Source of the DNA: a virus
Direction: 5' to 3' (one strand)
Length of the DNA: 64,000 nt
Virus record (IMG/VR): IMGVR_UViG_3300025648_000013
Under the pieces are notes generated by a model. The model worked only from the letters and a program-made list of their open reading frames with translations, was not told the origin of the DNA and ran no database searches. A program made the translations under genes and the position numbers. Below, in pieces: positions 2,742 through 42,063 of this stretch (within the stretch, counting starts at the first letter, position 1; each line of letters opens with the position of its first letter).

Positions 2742-3556
2742 TGAAAACTTTTAAAGGCTTCTTGGAAGAAGCTCCCATAACAATTAATAATACACCAATG
2801 CACGGGTCACATTCTAAACCACCTATCGTAATCAATGTGCCTCCTATGCATGGTGATCATGCGAATGTGAAAGAAATTTCAGAAGCAGGTCATGGAGGAT
2901 TTGGAGATTTTAGACCTACAATTGATCCTCCAGACTTTGACAAAGAATATCCAAATCAAAATTCTCATCTCGGAGAAACTCATAAAGATGTTGATGGTGC
3001 ATTGGAGAAAGAGTATTCAAATATTCACCAGAACAATAGTTCTTTTTCCAATGCGCTTAAATCATACACAAAAGATTCAACTACAATAAACAATCACCTT
3101 ACACACAACGAAAGTCTACTACATAAATATTTACATCCTATAACGCACTCCAGGATAAGTGCTTTGGATTCTCAGTTGACTTCTCCAGACACAAAATTGA
3201 AACATGATTTACACGTATATCATGGAACATCTGCTTTTAATCCAGATCAAGAAGCATCAAAGCATCCAGACCGAAAGATCAAAATGCCGATGTTTTTATC
3301 AACATCTATTAATCCAAAAATTGCACATAATTTTGCGGCATCTGGTGATGGACACAAAGATGGTACTAAAAGACATATATTGCATATTCACTTAAAAAAG
3401 GGTCAGCAGGGTGGAGTGTATATAGGAAGAAAAAGTAAATTCTCCAATAATGAATATGAGCAACTTTTACCAAGAGATACAACTCTAAAGGTTCATACAT
3501 TGCCTACTGTACTAAGTGATGGTACACATATATGGCATGCTCATTTAGCAGATTAG
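2741..3556 (+). CDS. ADP-ribosyltransferase (Alt/VIP2-like) with capsid-targeting-like N-terminus
   Basis: VYHG, FLSTS and EYEQLLPR (ExE) motifs; N-terminus MKTFKGFLEE. Confidence 0.75.
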   Translation: MKTFKGFLEEAPITINNTPMHGSHSKPPIVINVPPMHGDHANVKEISEAGHGGFGDFRPTIDPPDFDKEYPNQNSHLGETHKDVDGALEKEYSNIHQNNSSFSNALKSYTKDSTTINNHLTHNESLLHKYLHPITHSRISALDSQLTSPDTKLKHDLHVYHGTSAFNPDQEASKHPDRKIKMPMFLSTSINPKIAHNFAASGDGHKDGTKRHILHIHLKKGQQGGVYIGRKSKFSNNEYEQLLPRDTTLKVHTLPTVLSDGTHIWHAHLAD

Positions 3557-3567
3557 GAACATAGAAT

Positions 3568-13761: not shown

Positions 13762-14316
13762 GTGAATATCTTTTATATCGATGAGTCTGCACAGCAATGC
13801 GCTGAGTGGATGGTTGATAAACATTGCGTCAAGATGATCGTTGAGACGGCACAACTGTTGTCTACTGCACATCGCATTCTTGACGGTGATGAGTATGTTG
13901 GTGAATCTAAAACTGGTCGTAAAGCAAAGCGTTGGCGATTGAATGATGGTCGTCAAGATGTTTTGTATTCTGCTAGTCATATCAATCACCCTTCTGCTGT
14001 GTGGGTGCGACAGTCGGTAGAAAACTATAACTGGCTTGTAGATCATCTGTTTGCTCTTGGCGATGAGTACACTTATCGTTACGGCAAGAAACATTCGACA
14101 ATCGAAAAGCTTGGTTATCAGTTGCAGTCTCCACCTTACAAGTTGAAAGAATGGGACTGGACTCCAATGCCTTGCTGTATGCCAGACGAATACAAAGTGT
14201 CAGATGATCCTGTATTGAACTATCGAAACTATTATGTCAATGCGAAGGCATATCTGAAAAGTTATAAGAATCGTCAACCACCGCCATGGTGGCCAGACGA
14301 TTCTGGTGTCTTTTAA
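13762..14316 (+). CDS. Pyrimidine-dimer DNA glycosylase / endonuclease V-like family protein
   Basis: MNIFY...DKHCVKMIVETAQLLSTAH...HINHPS..WVR...EYTYRYGKKH. Confidence 0.75.
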   Translation: MNIFYIDESAQQCAEWMVDKHCVKMIVETAQLLSTAHRILDGDEYVGESKTGRKAKRWRLNDGRQDVLYSASHINHPSAVWVRQSVENYNWLVDHLFALGDEYTYRYGKKHSTIEKLGYQLQSPPYKLKEWDWTPMPCCMPDEYKVSDDPVLNYRNYYVNAKAYLKSYKNRQPPPWWPDDSGVF

Positions 14317-15049
14317 AATTACCAGGGTCGTACATTTTACCACAGTGCTTACATTCTATTTTTGCTGGTTTGGTAAATGATGTAACTTTACGTCCCTTTC
14401 TACTCCTTAGAATTTTTAATTCTTTGGCACGCTCTTCTCCGTGAATTTCTTCATACGTTTTCCCTTTGAGATATTCTTTCGAAACGCCAGTGGTACGTTT
14501 TCGTATTTGTTCTTTTAGCACTTGCGCCTTTTCCTCGCCGTAAATCTCCTCATATCTCTTACCCTGTCTTTTGGAACGCAGAGCGTCTTTCGTAATTTCT
14601 GTATGATGCTTTCCAAGCATTCCTCTCGGATGAGTTTTATCTGGACTTTTATTCCACGACATTAACGAGTTGCTGTCCAATTCTTCTTTCATTTTATCAC
14701 TCCGGCGCTGTCGTCTATTTTTGGTCCAGTATTTTTTCGCGCCTTCTTGCATCTTTTGTTTTTGTACGGTGGATCTTGGAGAACTATTACCCTCTCCACC
14801 CTCGCATACATTATGCAATATTCCGTTTGGATCTATATTTTTCCTACCATACCACCTAATATATCGTCTTTCAAGAGCACATGCTCCTACATTACTAAGG
14901 CGTGTTTCGAGAAATACAATTTTAGATGTGTCTTTAGGAGTAGATATTCTACCATGATCTATAAATGCCCTTGTGCCTTTACCTTTACCGATATAGTATG
15001 GTGTGTTAGCCGAAGATCGTAAATAGGCATATACGTAATAAATAAACAT
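14237..15049 (-). mobile_element. Free-standing GIY-YIG homing endonuclease with NUMOD3-type repeats
   Basis: YYVYAY...PYYIGKGKGTRA...ERRYIRWYGR...N..EGGEG; GKHHTE; own late promoter; antisense overlap with the upstream gene end. Confidence 0.85.
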
Positions 15050-15108
15050 TGCTGGTGCTCCTTAATAGCAGTAGTGCGGTTGGACATGCCACTGTCGCGA
15101 ACCGTATC
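15050..15108 (-). promoter_or_regulatory. Structured endonuclease leader, copy 1
   Basis: Two-stem element plus an SD-containing hairpin; covaries with 56828-56892. Confidence 0.6.
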
Positions 15109-31338: not shown

Positions 31339-32376
31339 ATGTATAGGATGAATATGAGTGACTTGTACCTAGATGTTATGTATTGTAATATTCTATCCAA
31401 CAGGCTAGAACGATTCAAAGTAAAGAAGTCTAGCCCATATGTAGCCAACTTTAGGTGCCCGTTCTGTGGTGATTCGCAGAAGAGCAAATACAAAGCCCGT
31501 GCATATTTATTTCAGCACAAGGGCAAGACGTATTTCAAGTGCTACAACTGTGGGCTTGCTCATGGGTTCTCCAACTTCCTTAAGAGCATAGATCATACTC
31601 TACACCACGAATATGTTGTAGAGAAGTTCAAGAACAGGGCTGATATCAAGACCAAAGAACCACCAAAACAAGACATTGCTAGGTTTACACCACCAGCTTT
31701 CCTGAAGTCTGGTTCACCTCTACGTAAGCTGAAGAAGATATCTCAACTGACATACGATCATCCTGCTAAGAAGTATATACTCTCTAGGAAGATCGAAAAC
31801 AAACATCATGCAAAGTTGTTCTACTGCACCAAGTTTGCGGAGTGGACTAACAGCATGATTCCAGATAAGCTGGATACGAAACAAGATGAGTCTAGACTGA
31901 TCATTCCGTTTCTTGATGAAGACGGAAACATGTTTGGCTATCAGGGTAGAAGTTTTAATCCAAAGTCAAATCTACGCTATATAACTATCATGCTGGATGA
32001 CAGGCCAAAGATTTTTGGTCTTGACACTGTTGATAAAAACAAAAGGGTATACTGCTTTGAAGGACCACTCGACGCTACTTTTGTGGCAAACAGTATTGCT
32101 ATGTGCGGCGCTGATGTTACTCTGGATCAATCCTTTGTGGACGTTGTTTACGTTCTTGATAATGAGCCTCGCAATAAAGAAATCGTAAAACGTCTTGACA
32201 AAATGATCGATAAGGGTTATAGTGTAATGATATGGGACGATACGTTCAAGGGCAAAGATATCAATGACATGATTCTGAATGGAGCAGATGTTGAACACAT
32301 CACAATCGTCCTAGAGAAGCGAACATTTAGCGGGCTAGAGGCTCGTGTGGAGTTGATGAAATGGAAGAAAGTATGA
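31339..32376 (+). CDS. 61: DNA primase (T4 gp61)
   Basis: NFRCPFCGDS...CYNC zinc ribbon; GYQGR; EGPLD; DNEPRN; KDINDM. Confidence 0.93.
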   Translation: MYRMNMSDLYLDVMYCNILSNRLERFKVKKSSPYVANFRCPFCGDSQKSKYKARAYLFQHKGKTYFKCYNCGLAHGFSNFLKSIDHTLHHEYVVEKFKNRADIKTKEPPKQDIARFTPPAFLKSGSPLRKLKKISQLTYDHPAKKYILSRKIENKHHAKLFYCTKFAEWTNSMIPDKLDTKQDESRLIIPFLDEDGNMFGYQGRSFNPKSNLRYITIMLDDRPKIFGLDTVDKNKRVYCFEGPLDATFVANSIAMCGADVTLDQSFVDVVYVLDNEPRNKEIVKRLDKMIDKGYSVMIWDDTFKGKDINDMILNGADVEHITIVLEKRTFSGLEARVELMKWKKV

Positions 32377-33059
32377 GCAGCGTTAATCTTGTAGGCATTA
32401 CTCAGCCAGATTACGAAACAACAGGGTGCATCGATGCATCAGAGTTGGTTGCTTGGGCCGCGCGAGTTAGCAATCCTAGTAATCAACAAAATCACGAAAC
32501 TGCTCCAAAACTGCTTCAATATTTAATCAAGAATCAGCATTGGAGTCCCTTAGAATGCGTACATATTAGTATGCGTATTTCTACCACGCGTGACATCGCC
32601 CGACAGATTCTTCGCCATCGTTCGTTCTCGTTTCAAGAGTATAGCCAGCGATATGCTGATCCTACTAAGGACTTGAAGTTCGTTACTCGTGAAGCGCGTT
32701 TGCAGGATCCAAAGAACCGGCAAAATAGTGTTGAGACAGATGATCTAGAATTGGCTTCGATGTGGGAAGATGCCCAAGCCGATGTTCTAATCGCAAGCAA
32801 GAAAGCATATCAGTGGGCTATTGATAATGGTATTGCGAAGGAACAGGCTCGTGGAGTGTTGCCCGAGGGACTTACAGAATCCGTACTAATCCTGTCTGGT
32901 AGTTTAAGGAGTTTTGTCCATTATATTGCGGTCAGGAATCATCCCGATACTCAGAAAGAACATCGTATTGTTGCCGAACAGATTACTGAAGTAATCCTAG
33001 AACGGTTTCCAGATATGCGGGAATATCTGGAAAAGGTCATATCTGATAACTATTCTTGA
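32373..33059 (+). CDS. thyX: Flavin-dependent thymidylate synthase
   Basis: ARVS, HWSPLE, RHRSFSFQEYSQRY, EQAR..LP, TQKEHR. Confidence 0.93.
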   Translation: MSSVNLVGITQPDYETTGCIDASELVAWAARVSNPSNQQNHETAPKLLQYLIKNQHWSPLECVHISMRISTTRDIARQILRHRSFSFQEYSQRYADPTKDLKFVTREARLQDPKNRQNSVETDDLELASMWEDAQADVLIASKKAYQWAIDNGIAKEQARGVLPEGLTESVLILSGSLRSFVHYIAVRNHPDTQKEHRIVAEQITEVILERFPDMREYLEKVISDNYS

Positions 33060-33792: not shown

Positions 33793-34005
33793 ATGTCAGT
33801 AAGTTATTCAGCAGTGTTTCTAGCGAATGGTACACAGGTAGGTACTACTACAGGTCAAACATCAGGCATTGACATTCAAGAAGAAATGAATGATGTTGCC
33901 AACTACTTCAGAGGTAATACACTTGGAGTTTCGTCTCTAGGAGTACAAAACTGGGACACTTTGAACATTACAGCGAACAGTCAACAATATACATTCAATA
34001 GGTAA
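33793..34005 (+). CDS. Small hypothetical protein
   Basis: AGGAG RBS. Confidence 0.55.
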   Translation: MSVSYSAVFLANGTQVGTTTGQTSGIDIQEEMNDVANYFRGNTLGVSSLGVQNWDTLNITANSQQYTFNR

Positions 34006-34011
34006 TAATGC

Positions 34012-35619
34012 ATGATTTATGTTTCTAAGCGCGATGGAAGTAAAGAACCACTAGACCTAAACAAGTTCCATCGTGTATGTCAGTTTGCGTGTGAAGGGCT
34101 TTCTGGTGTATCTGTATCAGAACTTGAAATCAAAACAAAGATTCAGTTTCACAATGGCATCACGTCCAAGGACATTCAAGAAACACTGATCAAAGCCGCG
34201 GCTGATCTTATCTCTGAAGAAACACCTAACTATCAATACGTTGCTGGTCGTCTAATCAACTATCAGTTGCGTAAGGAAGTGTATGGACATTATGAACCTG
34301 TATCATTATTTGTTCATTATGGGACCGTAAAAAATGCTGGTTATTATGACAAGGAACTAGATGATTCATATTCAGATGAAGAGTGGATTGAACTTTCCAA
34401 CTACATCGACCATGATCGTGACAATCTTCTTACCTATGCTGCTATGGAGCAGTTTCGTGGTAAGTATCTAATCAAGAATCGTGTTACTGGTCAGTTCTAT
34501 GAAACGCCTCAGATGGCATTCATGTTGATCGCCATGACATTGTTTCAAAACTACAAGAATGACCGTATCAAGTGGGTAAAGGAACTATATGATGCTATCT
34601 CTACATTTGACATTAGCTTGCCTACTCCTATTATGGCTGGAGTTCGTTCTCCTCAGCGTCAGTTTAGTTCTTGCGTGCTTATTGAGTCGGATGATTCTCT
34701 CGACTCGATTAATGCCACATCGTCTGCAATCGTTAAGTACGTTTCTCAGAAAGCTGGAATCGGAATCGGCGGTGGTCGCATTAGGGCTATTGGCTCTCCC
34801 ATTCGCGGTGGGGATGCTGTTCATACTGGCGTTGTACCATTCTGGAAACATTTTCAATCTGCTGTTAAATCGTGTTCGCAGGGTGGCGTAAGAGGTGGTG
34901 CAGCAACCATCTACTATCCTCTTTGGCATCTTGAAGTTGAAGAACTTCTAGTTCTTAAGAACAATAAGGGCACTGAAGACAATCGTATTCGACATATGGA
35001 CTATGGCGTTCAGTTCAATAAGGTGATGTACGAACGACTTCTATCTGGTGGTGTAATCACTCTATTCTCGCCTTCTGATGTGCCTGATCTGTATGAATGT
35101 TTCTTTAATGATAATGACAAGTTTCGTAGTCTCTATGAGAAATACGAACGCAATCCAAAAATCAGAAAGAAGTCTATTCCTGCGATTGATCTATTCTCAG
35201 CTTTCATGCAAGAAAGAAAGGATACTGGTCGAATCTATCTGATGAATGTTGACCATGCTAACGATCATGGTTCATTTGATAAGAAGAAGGCATTGATCAA
35301 GATGAGCAATCTCTGCTGCCTTAGCGGAGATACTTGGATTACGGTTGAGCATTCTGATGGTTCTATAGAAGATATTAAGCTGAAAGATGCTGTAGTTGGT
35401 GATAAAGTTTATAGTAGAAATATCAAGACGGGCAAAAATGAGTTCAAGAATATCAATGCTTCATTGAAAACCAGAGAAGGCGCGAAGGTCATGCGTATCA
35501 CAGACATGGAAACCGGAAACTCTATTGTTTGTACTCCCGACCATCGAGTATACACAAAAAATAGAGGATATGTTGAGGCTAAAGACTTGCTAGAAACAGA
35601 TCAACTGTTAATAGAATAA
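34012..35619 (+). CDS. nrdA: Class Ia ribonucleotide reductase alpha, N-terminal part fused to split intein N-half
   Basis: ATP cone (VSKRDG), PTPIMAG, QFSSC, SQGGVRGG, SNLC; then CLSGDT...CTPDHRVYT..RG.VEA.DL (intein blocks A and B). Confidence 0.93.
   Translation: MIYVSKRDGSKEPLDLNKFHRVCQFACEGLSGVSVSELEIKTKIQFHNGITSKDIQETLIKAAADLISEETPNYQYVAGRLINYQLRKEVYGHYEPVSLFVHYGTVKNAGYYDKELDDSYSDEEWIELSNYIDHDRDNLLTYAAMEQFRGKYLIKNRVTGQFYETPQMAFMLIAMTLFQNYKNDRIKWVKELYDAISTFDISLPTPIMAGVRSPQRQFSSCVLIESDDSLDSINATSSAIVKYVSQKAGIGIGGGRIRAIGSPIRGGDAVHTGVVPFWKHFQSAVKSCSQGGVRGGAATIYYPLWHLEVEELLVLKNNKGTEDNRIRHMDYGVQFNKVMYERLLSGGVITLFSPSDVPDLYECFFNDNDKFRSLYEKYERNPKIRKKSIPAIDLFSAFMQERKDTGRIYLMNVDHANDHGSFDKKKALIKMSNLCCLSGDTWITVEHSDGSIEDIKLKDAVVGDKVYSRNIKTGKNEFKNINASLKTREGAKVMRITDMETGNSIVCTPDHRVYTKNRGYVEAKDLLETDQLLIE
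35317..35616 (+). mobile_element. Split intein, N-half (100 aa)
   Basis: Starts Cys1 CLSGDTWI; block B TPDH; ends at a stop codon. Confidence 0.88.
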
Positions 35620-35683
35620 TCTCTAAAAAGTAAAATATATAAATAGTCATGAAACAACTAAACCTACTATTAGGAAACATTTT

Positions 35684-36385
35684 ATGGCTATTGTATATAA
35701 AATAACAAATAAAACAAATGGTAAAGGTTATGTCGGTTACACTGTTAGAAATTTAGATCAAAGATGGAAAGCTCACCAATCTTCTGTTAGACAGGGCAGT
35801 AAGTTTAGATTTCATTCTGCTATTCGCAAATATGGTGTGGACGATTGGACTTTAGAGATTCTCTTTGAGTCTGATGATGTTGAAGAATGTAAAAGAACAG
35901 AAGAACGTTATATAAAAGAACTTTTTCTGATGGATAATAAGTTTGGATATAATGCTAAGCCAGGCGGTTGTGGTGGATGGATTGTTCCCGATGAAAAATA
36001 CTCACAGTGGCTTTCATTAATGAAAATAAGATCAGATGGGATAAAAAACGGAAATAGCACAAAATACACTAATGATGATTTGGTTGATATTGCCATACAA
36101 GTATTTTATGATTTAGGTAGAATCGTTGGACATTCAGCTTTAGTAGAAGAATGTAAAAAGCGAGACATTAGATTTCCTAAATCATTTAGACCATTTAGAT
36201 TTAATGGTAAATATGAGAACATGATAAAAATCATTGAAGAAAAATCAGGTATGTCGTATAATCCATTCTTTAGATCAGAAGAACATCGTGATAAGTTACG
36301 TCAAGCAAATCTAGGTAAATCCAGTCACAATAAAAATACCAAAGTTATTGTATTAGAAGGTAAAAGAAAACATGTTAAGTATTGA
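35684..36385 (+). mobile_element. GIY-YIG homing endonuclease between the two nrdA halves
   Basis: IVYKITNKTNGKGYVGYT...RWKAH...AIRKYG...E..YI...GYN..GG; late promoter at 35638. Confidence 0.88.
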
Positions 36386-36470
36386 ATATCTGGATCAAAC
36401 AGAAGATGTATATGATATTGAGGTGGAAAAGAACTCAAACTTCTTTGCTAATGGTATTCTAGTACATAAC
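36372..36470 (+). mobile_element. Split intein, C-half (33 aa)
   Basis: VYDIEV...NFFANGILVHN followed by +1 Cys. Confidence 0.9.
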
Positions 36471-37433
36471 TGTGAGATCACCCTTCCCACAACACCACTA
36501 AAGGATATTAATGATGAACAAGGTGAAATATCGTTGTGTACGTTAAGTGCGATTAATTGGGGAAAGATTAGAAAGCCAGCTGACTTCGAAAAGCCATGCA
36601 CCATTGCTGTACGCGCTTTGGATGCCCTACTGGATTATCAGGACTATCCTGTTAGAGCCGCTGAGATTGGTACTCGCAACCGTCGTCCTCTTGGCATCGG
36701 CATCATTAATTTTGCTTATTGGTTGGCTCGTAATGATAGCAATTACTCTAATCCAAATCTCGATCTTGTGCACGAATATGCTGAAGCATGGAGTTACTAT
36801 CTTATCAAAGCCTCGGTCGACCTGGCAGAAGAAGTAAATCCATGTCCTAAGCATGCTGATACGCTTTACTCAAGTGGTATCTTGCCTATTGATACGTACA
36901 AGAAGGAAGTTGACGAGATAGTTCAACCAAACTATAAGATGGATTGGGATAGCCTTGCTCTTCGCGCAGCTACAGTTGGTATTCGTAACTCGACTTTGAT
37001 GGCTCTAATGCCGGCAGAGACATCGGCACAAATTTCAAATTCAACGAATGGTATTGAGCCTCCTCGTGCGTTGGTATCAATCAAGCAGAGTAAAGACGGT
37101 GTTCTAAAGCAGGTTGTTCCTGATATCAAGAAACTAAAGAATAAGTATGAACTACTGTGGGACCAGAAGTCACCAGAAGGTTATCTGAAGATCATGGCAG
37201 TTCTACAGAAGTTTGTTGATCAAGCTATCTCCGTGAACACCTCCTACAATCCAGCGCACTATCCAGATGGTAAGATTCCTTTGTCTGAAATGATCGGGCA
37301 CTTGTTGATGCATTACAAACTCGGAGGCAAAACCCTATATTATTTTAATACCAATGATCAGTCTGGTGAGATTGAAGATTCACTATCACCAGGTAAAGTT
37401 GATGATGAACAATGTGATAGTTGCACTATTTAA
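36372..37433 (+). CDS. nrdA: Split intein C-half fused to ribonucleotide reductase alpha C-terminal part
   Basis: CEITLPT, LCTL, RPLGIG, MPAETS, NGIEP, DQAIS, KTLYY, terminal CDSC. Confidence 0.93.
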   Translation: MLSIEYLDQTEDVYDIEVEKNSNFFANGILVHNCEITLPTTPLKDINDEQGEISLCTLSAINWGKIRKPADFEKPCTIAVRALDALLDYQDYPVRAAEIGTRNRRPLGIGIINFAYWLARNDSNYSNPNLDLVHEYAEAWSYYLIKASVDLAEEVNPCPKHADTLYSSGILPIDTYKKEVDEIVQPNYKMDWDSLALRAATVGIRNSTLMALMPAETSAQISNSTNGIEPPRALVSIKQSKDGVLKQVVPDIKKLKNKYELLWDQKSPEGYLKIMAVLQKFVDQAISVNTSYNPAHYPDGKIPLSEMIGHLLMHYKLGGKTLYYFNTNDQSGEIEDSLSPGKVDDEQCDSCTI

Positions 37434-37545
37434 GGAGTTTTTATTATGCGTTACTGGATCGATATTGACTTTGTTTTAAAAGATGAAACTCATGTTTGGC
37501 GACAAACTTTTCCTGCAAATCAAGTAGAATGGATAGACGAAAGCG

Positions 37546-38643
37546 ATGTCAGTATTCAATAAAAATCGATTTGACGCAACACAACAGACTTGCTTCTTTG
37601 GTGAGAATGTAAACATCGCTAGATATGACAAACAACGCTATCCAATCTTCGAAAAACTAACTGATAAACAACTTGGTTTCTTTTGGCGACCAGAAGAAGT
37701 TGATCTGTCTCGTGATGGCAAAGACTTCAAGGCACTAAATGACCATGAAAAACACATTTTTACCTCGAACCTTAAGCGTCAGATTCTACTTGATTCTGTA
37801 CAAGGTCGGGCTCCTTCGCTTGCTTTCCTCCCTGTGTGTTCGCTACCAGAGTTGGAGACCTGGATCCAAACTTGGGCGTTTAGTGAGACGATTCATAGTA
37901 GATCGTACACTCACATCATTCGCAATGTATACAGTGATCCAAGTAGAGTATTCGATGAGATGCTCAACATCCCAGAAATCTTAGACTGTGCTGGTGATAT
38001 CAGCAAGTATTATGATGATTTGATTACTCTAAACAATACACTTGGTTGTCCAGAATCAGAATATGGTTATACGCCAAAGTATCGATATGATCACAAGAAA
38101 GCATTATGGCTATGTCTCAATGCTGTCAATGCATTAGAAGGAGTTAGATTCTATGTCTCATTCGCATGCTCTTGGGCATTTGCTGAAGTCAAGAAAATGG
38201 AGGGCAATGCTAAGATCATTAAACTCATTGCCCGCGACGAGAACGTTCACCTTGCCTCAACTCAAAACCTCCTCAAGATTCTACCGAAAGAGGATGAAGA
38301 CTTTGCGAGAATACGGGAAGAGACACGGGCTGATTCCATTGATATCTTTCAGCGAGTTATCGATCAAGAGAAGAAGTGGGCACACTATCTCTTTCATCAG
38401 GGATCTATGATTGGTCTTAATGAACAACTACTTTGTGATTATGTTGATCATATTGCTGCAAAGCGTATGGGAACGATTGGTCTAAATGGTAAAGCTGGTC
38501 TTAATCCTCTACCATGGACTGCTAAATGGATTAGTGGTTCTGATGTACAAGTAGCGCCGCAACAAACGCAGATTACCAGTTACGTTTCTGGCGGAGTTAA
38601 TAAAGACGTAACTGAAGAAACGTTCAAAAGTTTTACCCTATAA
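37546..38643 (+). CDS. nrdB: Class Ia ribonucleotide reductase beta subunit with Q340/Q342 where Glu is conserved
   Basis: FFWRPEE, LDSVQGR, ETIHSRSY, LEGVRFYVSF, RDENVH; tail VAPQQTQITSY. Confidence 0.93.
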   Translation: MSVFNKNRFDATQQTCFFGENVNIARYDKQRYPIFEKLTDKQLGFFWRPEEVDLSRDGKDFKALNDHEKHIFTSNLKRQILLDSVQGRAPSLAFLPVCSLPELETWIQTWAFSETIHSRSYTHIIRNVYSDPSRVFDEMLNIPEILDCAGDISKYYDDLITLNNTLGCPESEYGYTPKYRYDHKKALWLCLNAVNALEGVRFYVSFACSWAFAEVKKMEGNAKIIKLIARDENVHLASTQNLLKILPKEDEDFARIREETRADSIDIFQRVIDQEKKWAHYLFHQGSMIGLNEQLLCDYVDHIAAKRMGTIGLNGKAGLNPLPWTAKWISGSDVQVAPQQTQITSYVSGGVNKDVTEETFKSFTL

Positions 38644-39812
38644 TGTATTTTATTCCTAATATTGAAGAATGTCTACCTTTTGCTCGGGCTCTAGGCGCGA
38701 AAACACTTAGAGAAATTGTAATATCTCCTAGAGAAAATGATAAGCCGTTTAATTGTCATAATAACTGTGAGATAAATCCCATATTAGGATATTATATAGT
38801 AAAAGATGGGCATAATATTTTACATGCATTCAAGCATTCCGTGCTTGATGTCGGGGATAAACTTGTAGACATAACACCAACTCTTGACCATCGTACATAT
38901 AATGTGTTTTGTTATGGCACCGAACACCGAGAAGAACACATTACGTATGTGAATAATACAGTCTTTATAAATAGAATAAAGGAGACTGATATGTGTTACT
39001 ACGTTTATGGTTTGATCGATCCAAGAAACAATCAAGTGTTTTATATCGGTAAAGGAAAAGACGATAGAGCATTGTCACACTTTACAGAACATGAACTTGC
39101 TCGATCAGGAAACAATAGAAAAACAGCAAAAATAAGAAAACTAAAGACACTGGGATATTATCCTGTTATAGAGTTTTATGCCCAAAATATTGAAGACGAA
39201 AATCTTGCCTACGATATCGAGTCATCACTCATAAAAAAATATGGCAGAATAGGATATGAGGAATATGGCACACTTACAAATATCTGTGAGGACAATAGAC
39301 CTCCTAACCACAAAGGAAAGACATATCTAGACATATACGGGGCCCGCGCAGAAGAACAAAGAAAAAAACGACACGATTTGCAGTTGTCTGTCGGGGGTTG
39401 GTTCAAAGGACATACGCACACAAAGGAAACTCGCACAAAAATTAGCAAAAAAAGTTCTGGTGAGAACAATCCTAGATTTGGTGTTATCGTAAAGGGAACT
39501 GAAACTGCAAATAAAATAGGCGATGCGAATAGGGGCAAGAAACACTACAAGCGTCCGGACGTAAAATTGCTATACGTAGATGGATTAGATTTATTCATTT
39601 ATAGCAACGATCTTAGAGACTATTGCAGAGAAAATGGATACTCTTATGCCACCTTTAGTAAACAACTTTCTGATTCGTGGCCAAGAAGTAAACGGGGAAA
39701 AAATATGGGACTGTTGATAAGGTATGCTACCACCGATGAAATCACCAGTTATGTTTCTGGTGGCGTGAAAAAAGATATCACGGACACGACATTTTCTAAC
39801 TTTACCCTATGA
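38643..39812 (+). mobile_element. Fusion of a Cys-His-Asp transglutaminase/deamidase-like domain, a GIY-YIG endonuclease and a duplicate NrdB tail
   Basis: NCHNN (C38), HSV (H65), VDITP (D76); YYVYGLIDPR...FYIGKG from ATG 38991 with its own late promoter and RBS; NUMOD3 GHTHTKE; ends EITSYVSGGVKKDITDTTFSNFTL. Confidence 0.8.
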
Positions 39813-40258
39813 CAACTTATATAAGTATACGTGAAGCAACCGAGGTTGACTATCCTAGAATGATAGAGATAGAGAAAGCCTCATTTGAAACAGACACGAT
39901 TACGATTGATGAACTTGAAGACTACCAATCATTTGGTTGTAATGTCAATGTTCTTCAGATCAATGATGATATAGCAGGCTTCTATATAAGTTATGTCTAT
40001 GATGACGATCAAGATCAATCTGAATATCTAGAAACTTTAGAGATTGACCCACAATACCGCGGGCAAGGATACTCTAAACTGCTTTTACAACACTATATCG
40101 ATAATAAGACTATACCATGGTCCCCTCTCACTTTACACTGTAGAGTAGAGAACGATGTGGCTCTGTCTTTATATAATGCATACGGCTTTACTATTACTGA
40201 AATGGTCCTTGGCTTTTACGATGACGGAGGTAATGCATACAAACTCGTAAGGAGCTAA
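39809..40258 (+). CDS. GNAT acetyltransferase (RimI-like)
   Basis: IDPQYRGQGYSKLL, N..AL.LY...GF, FYDDG. Confidence 0.85.
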   Translation: MTTYISIREATEVDYPRMIEIEKASFETDTITIDELEDYQSFGCNVNVLQINDDIAGFYISYVYDDDQDQSEYLETLEIDPQYRGQGYSKLLLQHYIDNKTIPWSPLTLHCRVENDVALSLYNAYGFTITEMVLGFYDDGGNAYKLVRS

Positions 40259-40267
40259 TACAAAGAA

Positions 40268-40954
40268 ATGAAAACCAAGATACACCCTATCTTTGGTAAT
40301 GTTTCGCAATACGATTTACAAGTTTACGAATTAGAACTAGACCTGGAAAACTCGCGTGAAGTGGACGCCCTCGAACAAGGTTGGTTGATCAACGACAATA
40401 AGTGGTATAACTCACGTTCTGTCCGTATCGACTGCAATCTATTCGATAAGAAAACTAAACCACTAAAGGGTTATAAAGTAACCCACGTTGAATCGATTGA
40501 GGATATGTCAGACGTTGGTACCGTATTCGGTATGTTTACAGCCAGACGTAACCTCGATGACATTTATACAATAGAAATCGATCTAGATCGTGCAACATGG
40601 ATTCTTGTGTATAACAATGCAGGAGACTTGGTTGCATTTTCTAAGATGACAACTTATGACGGTGGGCTTGAAACACAGTTTACCGCATGGGACTACTCAG
40701 AACCAAAAGCTTCTATCTCACGCCACTTAGTGGCATATGAAGTAGAGTTAGCCAAGAAGATGGGATATTCTCATCTTTACATTGGTTCTGGTTATGGAAA
40801 TATTGGTATCTACAAGTCACAGTTCAAAGGCTTTGAATGGTGGGATGGAGAACAGTGGTCAACCGACATTGATAAATATGTCGAAGTTTGCTACAGAGAC
40901 GACTCCATCAAAACCCTTCAAGACTTATCTGGATTGATTAATGGCCCTACCTAA
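40268..40954 (+). CDS. ATE/Bpt-like aminoacyl-tRNA--protein transferase
   Basis: ALEQGW, SRSVRID, LVAF, EVELAKKMGYSHLYIG...YKSQF..FE resemble the ATE C-terminal domain. Confidence 0.6.
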   Translation: MKTKIHPIFGNVSQYDLQVYELELDLENSREVDALEQGWLINDNKWYNSRSVRIDCNLFDKKTKPLKGYKVTHVESIEDMSDVGTVFGMFTARRNLDDIYTIEIDLDRATWILVYNNAGDLVAFSKMTTYDGGLETQFTAWDYSEPKASISRHLVAYEVELAKKMGYSHLYIGSGYGNIGIYKSQFKGFEWWDGEQWSTDIDKYVEVCYRDDSIKTLQDLSGLINGPT

Positions 40955-41414
40955 AGTTCATAGTTTTCGTGTCCATACGATGCTTCACGATCCTGCCTTT
41001 CAGAAAGAGATTGGTAGGACCGTGAAGATCATCGACAAGTATGATGTTCCTTATGTCGCTGGTTATTCCAAAGACGGTAAAGACATCTACATTGATAGAC
41101 ACTTAAACGTAAACTTTAATGGTACAAATATTACAAAATACCTCCTTGTTCACGAAAGAGTGGAGAAGGCCTTGATAGATGTGTTTGGGCTTCGATACCA
41201 AGAAGCCCATCACATTGCGTTAGCAGTAGAGCATGACGCGGTTGTTGGTGATGGTATCAATTGGAGAGATTATTCCAAGTTTGTTGATAAATACGTCAAG
41301 AAACTTGATCATGAAAACCTCAAGTTATCACCACCAAATCTAGACCTCACGCCCTACGAAGACGAAAAGGACTTCTCCAAGTTCGTGAAAAAACGGAGTA
41401 AACAAAATGATTGA
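40941..41414 (+). CDS. Hypothetical protein with HExxE...H motif
   Basis: VPYVAGYS, LVHERVEK, YQEAHHIA. Confidence 0.6.
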   Translation: MALPKVHSFRVHTMLHDPAFQKEIGRTVKIIDKYDVPYVAGYSKDGKDIYIDRHLNVNFNGTNITKYLLVHERVEKALIDVFGLRYQEAHHIALAVEHDAVVGDGINWRDYSKFVDKYVKKLDHENLKLSPPNLDLTPYEDEKDFSKFVKKRSKQND

Positions 41415-41568
41415 TTGGATCGAATGTTCTATATGTGAAACAGAATACAAGTTGATTAGTAAAGAACCAGGCATACAAGTTGAGTTTTGTCCATTTTGTG
41501 GCGTTGATGCTGATAGCCAGTTCACACCAGAAGAAGTAGACGACGAAGATGAAGAGTTCGACAGTTAA
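41407..41568 (+). CDS. Small zinc-ribbon protein with acidic tail
   Basis: CSIC...FCPFCG; usual neighbour of endonuclease II. Confidence 0.65.
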   Translation: MIDWIECSICETEYKLISKEPGIQVEFCPFCGVDADSQFTPEEVDDEDEEFDS

Positions 41569-41988
41569 ATGGATTATGAAAATCCATGGATCTATGATGG
41601 GGAACCCTTTACTGATGCACAGGCTGATGGTCATTTTGCATTTGTTTACTTGATCACAAATAAAGTTTCTGGTCGAAAATATCTGGGCAAAAAACTCTTC
41701 ACAATGGCTGGATATAAGACTATAAAGGGTAAGAAGAAGAAGATTCGCAAGCCTAGCGATTGGAAGACCTATTATGGTTCTTCTCCAAGTCTGAAAGCAG
41801 ATGTTGAAGATTTAGGCAAAGAAAACTTTTCTCGCGAGATACTAAAAGTTGTTGACAATAGATCATCCGCCAGTTATTATGAAGCGAAAGAGATGTTTGC
41901 TGTGGATGCGATTCTTTCAGATGAATATTATAATGATTGGTGTACTATAAAGATTTCATCGATGCATGTGAAAGCAATCTATAAATGA
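41569..41988 (+). CDS. Endonuclease II (DenA)-like GIY-YIG protein
   Basis: FVYLITN..SGRKYLGKK...SDWKTYYGSS...FSREIL...YYN. Confidence 0.8.
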   Translation: MDYENPWIYDGEPFTDAQADGHFAFVYLITNKVSGRKYLGKKLFTMAGYKTIKGKKKKIRKPSDWKTYYGSSPSLKADVEDLGKENFSREILKVVDNRSSASYYEAKEMFAVDAILSDEYYNDWCTIKISSMHVKAIYK

Positions 41989-42063
41989 GATAGGTTCTGT
42001 CAGTTGTACCTTAAACGACTGTCAAATGTTATAACATTGTTTTATTTTAATGGAGAATACTGA

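Follow-up and report, generated by a model that had tools for sequence, protein, structure and literature searches.

Why does a phage encode glutamine at two positions of the beta subunit of its class Ia ribonucleotide reductase (RNR) at which the relatives of the protein have glutamate, and what does the small Cys-His-Asp domain do that is encoded directly behind this gene? These questions are raised by the nrdB locus in a stretch of 64,000 nucleotides of viral DNA (IMG/VR record IMGVR_UViG_3300025648_000013), the whole of which we call the window. In E. coli, mutants affected in E350 of NrdB are inactive. The residue touches K154 and S647 of the alpha subunit and positions the tail of the beta subunit, and its substitution disrupts radical transfer (PMC11482829). 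The locus is composed of the following features, some of which were delimited by comparison with L001, a relative with an uninterrupted nrdB gene:

37546 to 38643, plus strand: nrdB, encoding the class Ia RNR beta subunit of 365 aa (PF00268, 150.7 bits)
38320 to 38555, plus strand: co-conversion tract, donor-like DNA upstream of the recoded codons (drop in identity to L001)
38560 to 38643, plus strand: replacement NrdB tail brought by the cassette, QQTQITSYVSGGVNKDVTEETFKSFTL plus stop (sequence reading, DNA and protein alignment)
38643 to 38990, plus strand: 116-aa Cys-His-Asp domain of an undescribed family, the start overlapping the nrdB stop (relatives and AF2 model)
38991 to 39743, plus strand: module of a GIY-YIG homing endonuclease, continuing the reading frame of the domain (PF22945, NUMOD3, phrog_314)
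39744 to 39812, plus strand: former nrdB tail, TSYVSGGVKKDITDTTFSNFTL plus stop, stranded here as the C-terminal end of the ORF with the endonuclease (DNA identity to L001)

NrdB of the window has the features of a class Ia beta subunit: It matches PF00268 and carries the di-iron ligands as well as the equivalents of Y122, W48 and Y356. In an alignment with the fetched E. coli NrdB, for which the literature numbering without the Met was used, the equivalents of W48, D84, E115, H118, Y122, E204, D237, E238, H241 and Y356 are all kept, and among the key residues checked the only departures affect E350 and E352, both of which are encoded as Gln. The C-terminus of the protein reads VAPQQTQITSYVSGGVNKDVTEETFKSFTL, i. 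e. the VAPQQTQITSY segment followed by the end of the tail. As stated in the original prediction, which had been made from the letters of the window, Q340 (codon CAA, 38563-38565) and Q342 (codon CAG, 38569-38571) precede Y346 (38581-38583); these residues map onto E350, E352 and Y356, respectively. The E350 position is occupied by Glu in 119/119 of the nearest NrdB relatives in a collection of 5.8 billion proteins and the E352 position in 118/119, the one exception being Asn. Given the invariant Glu in the relatives and the presence of the same recoding in dozens of independent assemblies, a chance origin of the Gln codons can be rejected. Sequencing errors, the occurrence of which had been named as an argument against the entire idea, can be dismissed as well, since the same bases are present in many independent assemblies and the exact protein sequence of the Q allele is encoded on 14 contigs; a variant differing in a single residue belongs to the same 90% cluster. 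There is no second nrdB gene within the 64 kb of the window. In an alignment of 26 Q-type tails (A3), the Tyr that matches Y356 is present throughout, as are the tail residues G29 and D34 and the Leu at the C-terminus; the Q-type tail is thus under constraint. Stranded tails, unlike the Q-type tails, decay to a few residues. Moreover, NrdA of the window has retained the equivalents of K154 and S647 in a context that is identical to that of an E-type relative and of E. coli.

How did the glutamine codons come into this gene? The TAA stop codon of nrdB overlaps the ATG of the next ORF (TAATG). This ORF (38643-39812) encodes a protein of 389 aa in which the 116-aa domain is followed by a GIY-YIG domain (about 38994-39248), a NUMOD3 module (about 39408-39485) and a second NrdB-like tail, and which ends in TDEITSYVSGGVKKDITDTTFSNFTL. 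The coupling of the two genes, the motifs of the domain and the GIY-YIG endonuclease had already been recognised; the NUMOD3 module can be added. The nuclease module has its own AGGAG (38980-38984) and ATG (38991). It reaches 31.2 bits with PF22945 (cut-off 27) and 36.8 bits with NUMOD3 (cut-off 20.4), PF01541 stays under its cut-off with 18.6 bits, and in the PHROGs the module matches phrog_314, "homing endonuclease", at 4e-10. The element combines a catalytic domain with a DNA-binding module, as GIY-YIG cassettes do, and it is also present in some relatives and absent from others at a defined site, with co-conversion of the flank: In the empty-site contigs L001-L004, nrdB is directly followed by a GNAT gene, and the same GNAT gene is located behind the insert in the window. 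The proteins of the 90% cluster that are about 93% identical and have no insert read QETE, and their tail, APQETEITSYVSGGVKKDITDTTFSNFTL, is the one that is stranded in the window; the stranded-tail peptide is the tail of the cluster mates P0121-P0134. The DNA of the stranded tail is 100% identical to the 3' end of the uninterrupted nrdB of L001; the match runs on into the GNAT gene, with 97-100% identity from 39744 onward. On the other side of the insert, the identity to L001 is 57-60/60 up to about 38320 but only 44-53/60 beyond this point, and 21 of the 24 amino acid differences between NrdB of the window and that of L001 lie in residues 262-362. A second tail that keeps its Glu (E-ITSY) had been predicted and is indeed present, but its DNA matches the empty allele only from ACC AGT TAT (39744) onward; the residues DE just before this point are found in GAT GAA ATC as opposed to the native ACA GAG ATT, and they have either drifted or are part of the junction.

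Judged by these DNA comparisons, the locus is the occupied state of a homing site that is empty in the relatives, with a co-conversion tract, and nrdB of the window is a chimera of a host-like body and a donor-derived C-terminal part. The proposal that an element had inserted at the QETE codons and supplied a replacement 3' end gains strong support from the identical tail in the empty-site contig L001 and from the co-conversion tract. We regard the anatomy and the spread of the cassette as firmly established, and a homing-endonuclease element of the tail-replacement type as the best explanation for it. Other kinds of mobile elements were considered and rejected: A group I intron finds no Rfam match at E<=1 in 34000-42000, and the insert is filled by ORFs; as to an intein at nrdB, the gene is closed by a stop codon of its own, and Pfam showed no Hint match in the insert. 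A SegE-like GIY-YIG ORF (139 aa) is located nearby at 41569-41988. It occupies the same place in the empty-site relatives L001-L004, and is thus older than the nrdB cassette.

The domain contains the motifs CHNN, GYY, HSV and VDITP in this order. An exhaustive search of 1.84 billion representative proteins identified 27 relatives; some of them are standalone proteins of 112-148 aa, others are fusions to GIY-YIG nucleases, and several end in NrdB-like tails. The conserved trio suggested for the domain is invariant in 52 distinct copies: H65 and D76 are present in 52/52 and C38 in 51/52, the remaining copy having a gap. Y51 and P79 never vary in these copies either, H39 (Glu in 4/52) and N41 (Ser in 3/52) are near-invariant, and G49 and T78 are invariant or nearly so in the alignments. 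In the AF2 model (pLDDT 93.2), one N-terminal helix is followed by mostly beta structure, in which a short helix begins with C38 and two neighbouring strands carry H65 and D76. An invariant Cys-His-Asp order, a Cys at the N-terminus of a helix, and His and Asp on adjacent strands are what would be expected of a deamidase-type enzyme, and all of this is seen in the aligned copies and the predicted structure. The residue pattern would suit a thiol hydrolase; the three residues could equally be metal ligands. A papain or transglutaminase fold had been predicted for residues 1-115. This part of the original prediction is not supported, as the confident model (pLDDT 93) matches no structure in the PDB and no link by fold or sequence to any known deamidase, transglutaminase or papain-like enzyme was found. 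The domain found no match in Pfam, the PHROGs or the PDB sequences, and a PDB profile search gave no relevant match. For none of 13 members was there a relevant match to CheD or the other deamidase families of Pfam at E<=10. The ESM Atlas contains only unnamed phage clusters for the domain, with YunG-like proteins below 0.9, and BFVD only a distant member of the family itself and unnamed phage proteins; in INPHARED the domain is present in no deposited phage genome, and P0161 and P0163, each used alone to search for loci, gave no match. The weak profile match to 9hth_A (E 0.23), a PDB chain annotated only as a DNA-directed DNA polymerase, which covers the HSV..DG..D.P stretch only, was dropped, and eight partial matches of P0159, an MBG-repeat surface protein, were spurious.

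Are the glutamine tails linked to this domain? In pattern searches with the motif of the tail fixed, VAPQQTQI identified 72 NrdB tails in the IMG/VR DNA, with the domain just downstream in 70/70 cases with enough sequence, and the same was true for 58/58 tails from the JGI metagenomes, a sample that is likely to overlap in part with the former; with the control pattern VAPQETEI, searched for with its motif fixed in the same manner, the domain was present within 2.5 kb in 0/70 cases. These numbers agree with the expected co-occurrence of APQQxQ and the domain, and QQTQ alleles without the domain, which would have weakened the idea if common, were not seen among the testable VAPQQTQ tails. A scan that is blind to the tail and relies on the domain motif DITPFxDxR yielded 33 distinct upstream tails: Q350 is present in 22 of them, E350 is combined with Q352 (and often with Q354 as well) in nine, and the remaining two, those of L403 and L425, are all-Glu. 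Further look-ups anchored at the domain revealed the tails QQGQ, QQTE and QETQ. At positions 350/352, the distinct tails with the domain (n=98) read QQ in 83 cases, EQ in 11, QE in two and EE in two, and the distinct tails without the domain are EE in 60 cases and never contain Q; only E or Q occurs at these two positions across the distinct tails. The L090 lineage illustrates the change at the downstream positions: Its stranded tail reads QETEKESY as compared to QETQKQSY in the new tail, so that E352 and E354 have become Gln.

There are limits to this linkage. Part of the co-occurrence is due to shared descent, because tail, domain and nuclease are physically one cassette. Moreover, 13 of the 98 domain-linked tails keep E350, and two of these are all-Glu. 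Dependence on the domain is therefore not universal, and the domain also accompanies genes in which position 350 needs no repair. The two all-Glu tails are the only exceptions to the rule that the domain implies Gln: In L403 (599-2857), an nrdB tail reading APQETEQETY is accompanied by an intact domain and a nuclease ORF with a NUMOD3 but no GIY-YIG match, and in L425 (110-2495), the tail APQETEVESY is found with an intact domain and a nuclease ORF with a GIY-YIG but no NUMOD3 match. These tails could be the result of reversion or gene conversion, or they could reflect the ancestral state, and the bases in question may be dispensable for the nuclease of this subfamily.

Phage contigs from freshwater and marine sources commonly carry the cassette. 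An NrdB tree that was built without the tails has 43 tips of the Q type and 97 of the E type and requires at least 20 state changes, as compared to 30-37 for shuffled labels on the same tree; because of these at least 20 changes we conclude that the cassette moves among NrdB lineages. Its architecture is variable: The domain is fused to the GIY-YIG nuclease at 65 loci, nuclease and domain follow each other as separate ORFs at ten, the domain precedes a separate nuclease ORF at two, and it stands alone at two. A full-length nuclease is present in 49/57 unique loci with 1 kb on both sides. In L398 (5858-7498), the domain forms the C-terminal end of an ORF of 547 aa with DUF723 repeats and treble-clef zinc fingers; this ORF, which has no GIY-YIG match, is located downstream of an nrdB gene ending APQESQLQSY. 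Domain and QQTQ are both retained at loci with a truncated or missing nuclease (L008, L010, L035). Conversely, the Cys-His-Asp domain is absent from a related GIY-YIG gene of the window (14240-15061, minus strand, HMM score 71.5). The modular architectures, the persistence after loss of the nuclease and this domain-free gene indicate that it is the nrdB tail, and not the nuclease, with which the domain is associated.

Two further loci carry additional insertions. In L005 (1318-3557), which has the same cassette, nrdB is split into two parts (1318-1869 and 3111-3557) by an HNH endonuclease ORF (2154-2990). In L333 (1-2037), nrdB contains a LAGLIDADG-type insert (product > 685 aa) and has the tail LPQETQIEDY, followed by a domain-GIY-YIG ORF; the RNR genes of such phages gather several mobile elements at once.

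The alpha subunit gene of the window has also been invaded. nrdA is fractured into a part encoding the N-extein and Int-N (34012-35619), with the intein beginning with CLSGDT after SNLC at the site of the catalytic C439, and a part encoding Int-C, which ends in ...VHN, and the C-extein (36372-37433); a GIY-YIG endonuclease gene (35684-36385) is located between the two pieces. nrdA holds a complete split intein, and since the gene, split by the GIY-YIG gene, is rescued by this intein, the phage evidently keeps its RNR working despite the invasion. Just upstream of the RNR cluster, the ORF 32361-33059 carries the RHRSFSFQEYSQRY motif; its counterpart in L001 is annotated as a flavin-dependent thymidylate synthase of the Thy1/ThyX family (PF02511).

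We suggest the following scenario. The cassette entered nrdB at the boundary of the Q349 and E350 codons by homing from a diverged donor phage, and its arrival co-converted about 100 upstream codons. It has given nrdB a new tail, with the old one being pushed downstream and fused to the nuclease ORF. In the new tail, two Glu codons are altered in their first base (GAR to CAR); at this base no synonymous change is available, and Gln is the only sense change besides Lys. The recoded bases are most likely those that the nuclease needs, and the left junction would thus not be cut again. The RNR would have to keep working with a Gln-coded tail, and for this reason the cassette would carry a small enzyme of the thiol type (C38/H65/D76), the translation of which is coupled to that of nrdB and which would turn the Gln residues of the tail back into Glu by deamidation. 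Conversion of the tail Gln to Glu by the domain after translation would be the simplest account, because Gln is found only beside the domain and because only Glu or Gln has ever been seen; we put the probability of this reading at about 0.55. More tentatively, and at slightly less than even odds, the entire locus may be viewed as a selfish cassette that has become indispensable at the protein level: Rewriting Glu as Gln would shield its own DNA, a new, structurally unassigned deamidase family would restore the Glu, and loss of the enzyme would kill RNR. We infer the cut site, the immunity, the chemistry of the enzyme and the dependence of RNR on the domain from the patterns described above, and there may be subfamilies in which immunity or dependence does not apply, since 13/98 tails keep E350 and two are all-Glu.

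It is conceivable that the Gln codons provide immunity against the nuclease only and are tolerated by RNR, and that the domain serves the element in another way, such as in homing efficiency, nuclease regulation or DNA handling. A domain without a recognisable deamidase fold that occurs also beside E350-keeping and all-Glu tails, and nearly all copies of which ride with a nuclease, would be in line with this idea. However, all tails with Q350 were accompanied by the domain, 119/119 neighbours have E350, the alpha-subunit partners of E350 are unchanged, and the related nuclease of the window (14240-15061) does without the domain, which in turn is also found in a second ORF architecture with no GIY-YIG match and persists where the nuclease has decayed. 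We consider this explanation rather unlikely, and a rescue of the Gln tail by other means than deamidation less likely still. Such a rescue might be a transglutaminase-type link between Q350 of the beta and K154 of the alpha subunit, or the domain might act as a chaperone or adaptor that places the tail; the linkage data would be the same as for deamidation. Thiol transglutaminases and glutamine deamidases have a common Cys-His-Asp acyl-enzyme chemistry, which would suit the first variant, as would the contact of E350 with K154. This contact is documented for the E. coli enzyme (PMC11482829). Yet, a covalent link between alpha and beta would block subunit turnover, and the restriction to E or Q at two or three neighbouring positions fits a conversion to Glu more simply.

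Two other ideas are far less probable. If the domain were a peptidase directed against the Glu-type NrdB tails of hosts or rival phages, to which the Gln tail is resistant, it would be a protein-level counterpart of homing. The invariant Cys, His and Asp and the recoding exactly within the tail segment would fit, but how a Q350 tail works would be left unexplained, and at the two loci with an all-Glu tail the intact domain would attack the phage's own NrdB; we regard this as very improbable. Marginally less credit still is due to the idea that the phage RNR is dead or dispensable and that the Gln codons are tolerated damage. This idea could be based on the inactivity of the E. coli E350 mutants, and the published work says only that radical transfer is disrupted (PMC11482829). 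It is at odds with the retention of all other catalytic NrdB residues and of the complete split intein in nrdA, as well as with the Q-type tails, which keep Tyr356, more tail residues and the C-terminal Leu where the stranded tails decay. Deamidation of the Gln tail by the domain thus remains the reading that we prefer.

If deamidation is confirmed, no mobile element known before would have found a way to deal with a target site in codons that no synonymous change can alter; the solution of the cassette would be to encode a precursor residue and to bring along the enzyme that matures it. This would be a new route to genetic addiction. The 116-aa domain would be the founding member of a new family of protein-editing enzymes with a short, defined peptide substrate. 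Moreover, an invariant residue of a textbook enzyme could then be written otherwise in the genome, which bears on annotation and on the way in which conservation is read.

A literature search yielded no published description of a Gln-recoded nrdB tail with a linked domain; there are, however, several systems that resemble parts of it. The free-standing GIY-YIG homing endonucleases of T4-like phages (seg genes, mobE) perform intronless homing with co-conversion (PMC2988022). The nrdB cassette shares with them the combination of GIY-YIG and NUMOD3, the presence/absence polymorphism, the co-conversion tract and the targeting of RNR genes, whereas the T4-like elements, unlike the cassette, sit between genes or split genes. 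To our knowledge, none of them involves the non-synonymous recoding of an essential residue or a second enzyme domain. In fungal mitochondria (Allomyces atp6 and others), mobile endonuclease ORFs with a C-terminal duplication are found. There as here, the insert brings a replacement end for the gene, and the old end is fused in frame to the nuclease. The replacement ends of the Allomyces atp6 type differ synonymously or conservatively, whereas the nrdB cassette changes two conserved Glu to Gln, and an extra Cys-His-Asp domain always accompanies this change. The maturation of an encoded Gln to Glu is known from the chemoreceptors, which are substrates of CheD/CheB, and from Pup, which is converted by Dop. 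In these cases as in our proposal, the gene specifies Gln where the working protein has Glu, with the conversion being assigned to a dedicated deamidase encoded nearby; in contrast to the domain described here, which has no sequence or fold relation to these enzymes (no Pfam match at E<=10), they belong to regulatory or maturation pathways of the host and are not selfish cargo. Finally, Dassa et al. 2009 (PMC2677866) described fractured genes with split inteins and a GIY-YIG endonuclease, and the arrangement of nrdA in the window matches these genes. Both there and in nrdB, a homing endonuclease has invaded an RNR gene, and the protein itself is, or in the case of nrdB would be, the level at which function is restored: In the fractured genes this is achieved by protein trans-splicing via Hint, whereas in the nrdB cassette, which has no splicing motifs, it would be achieved by the editing of a side chain.
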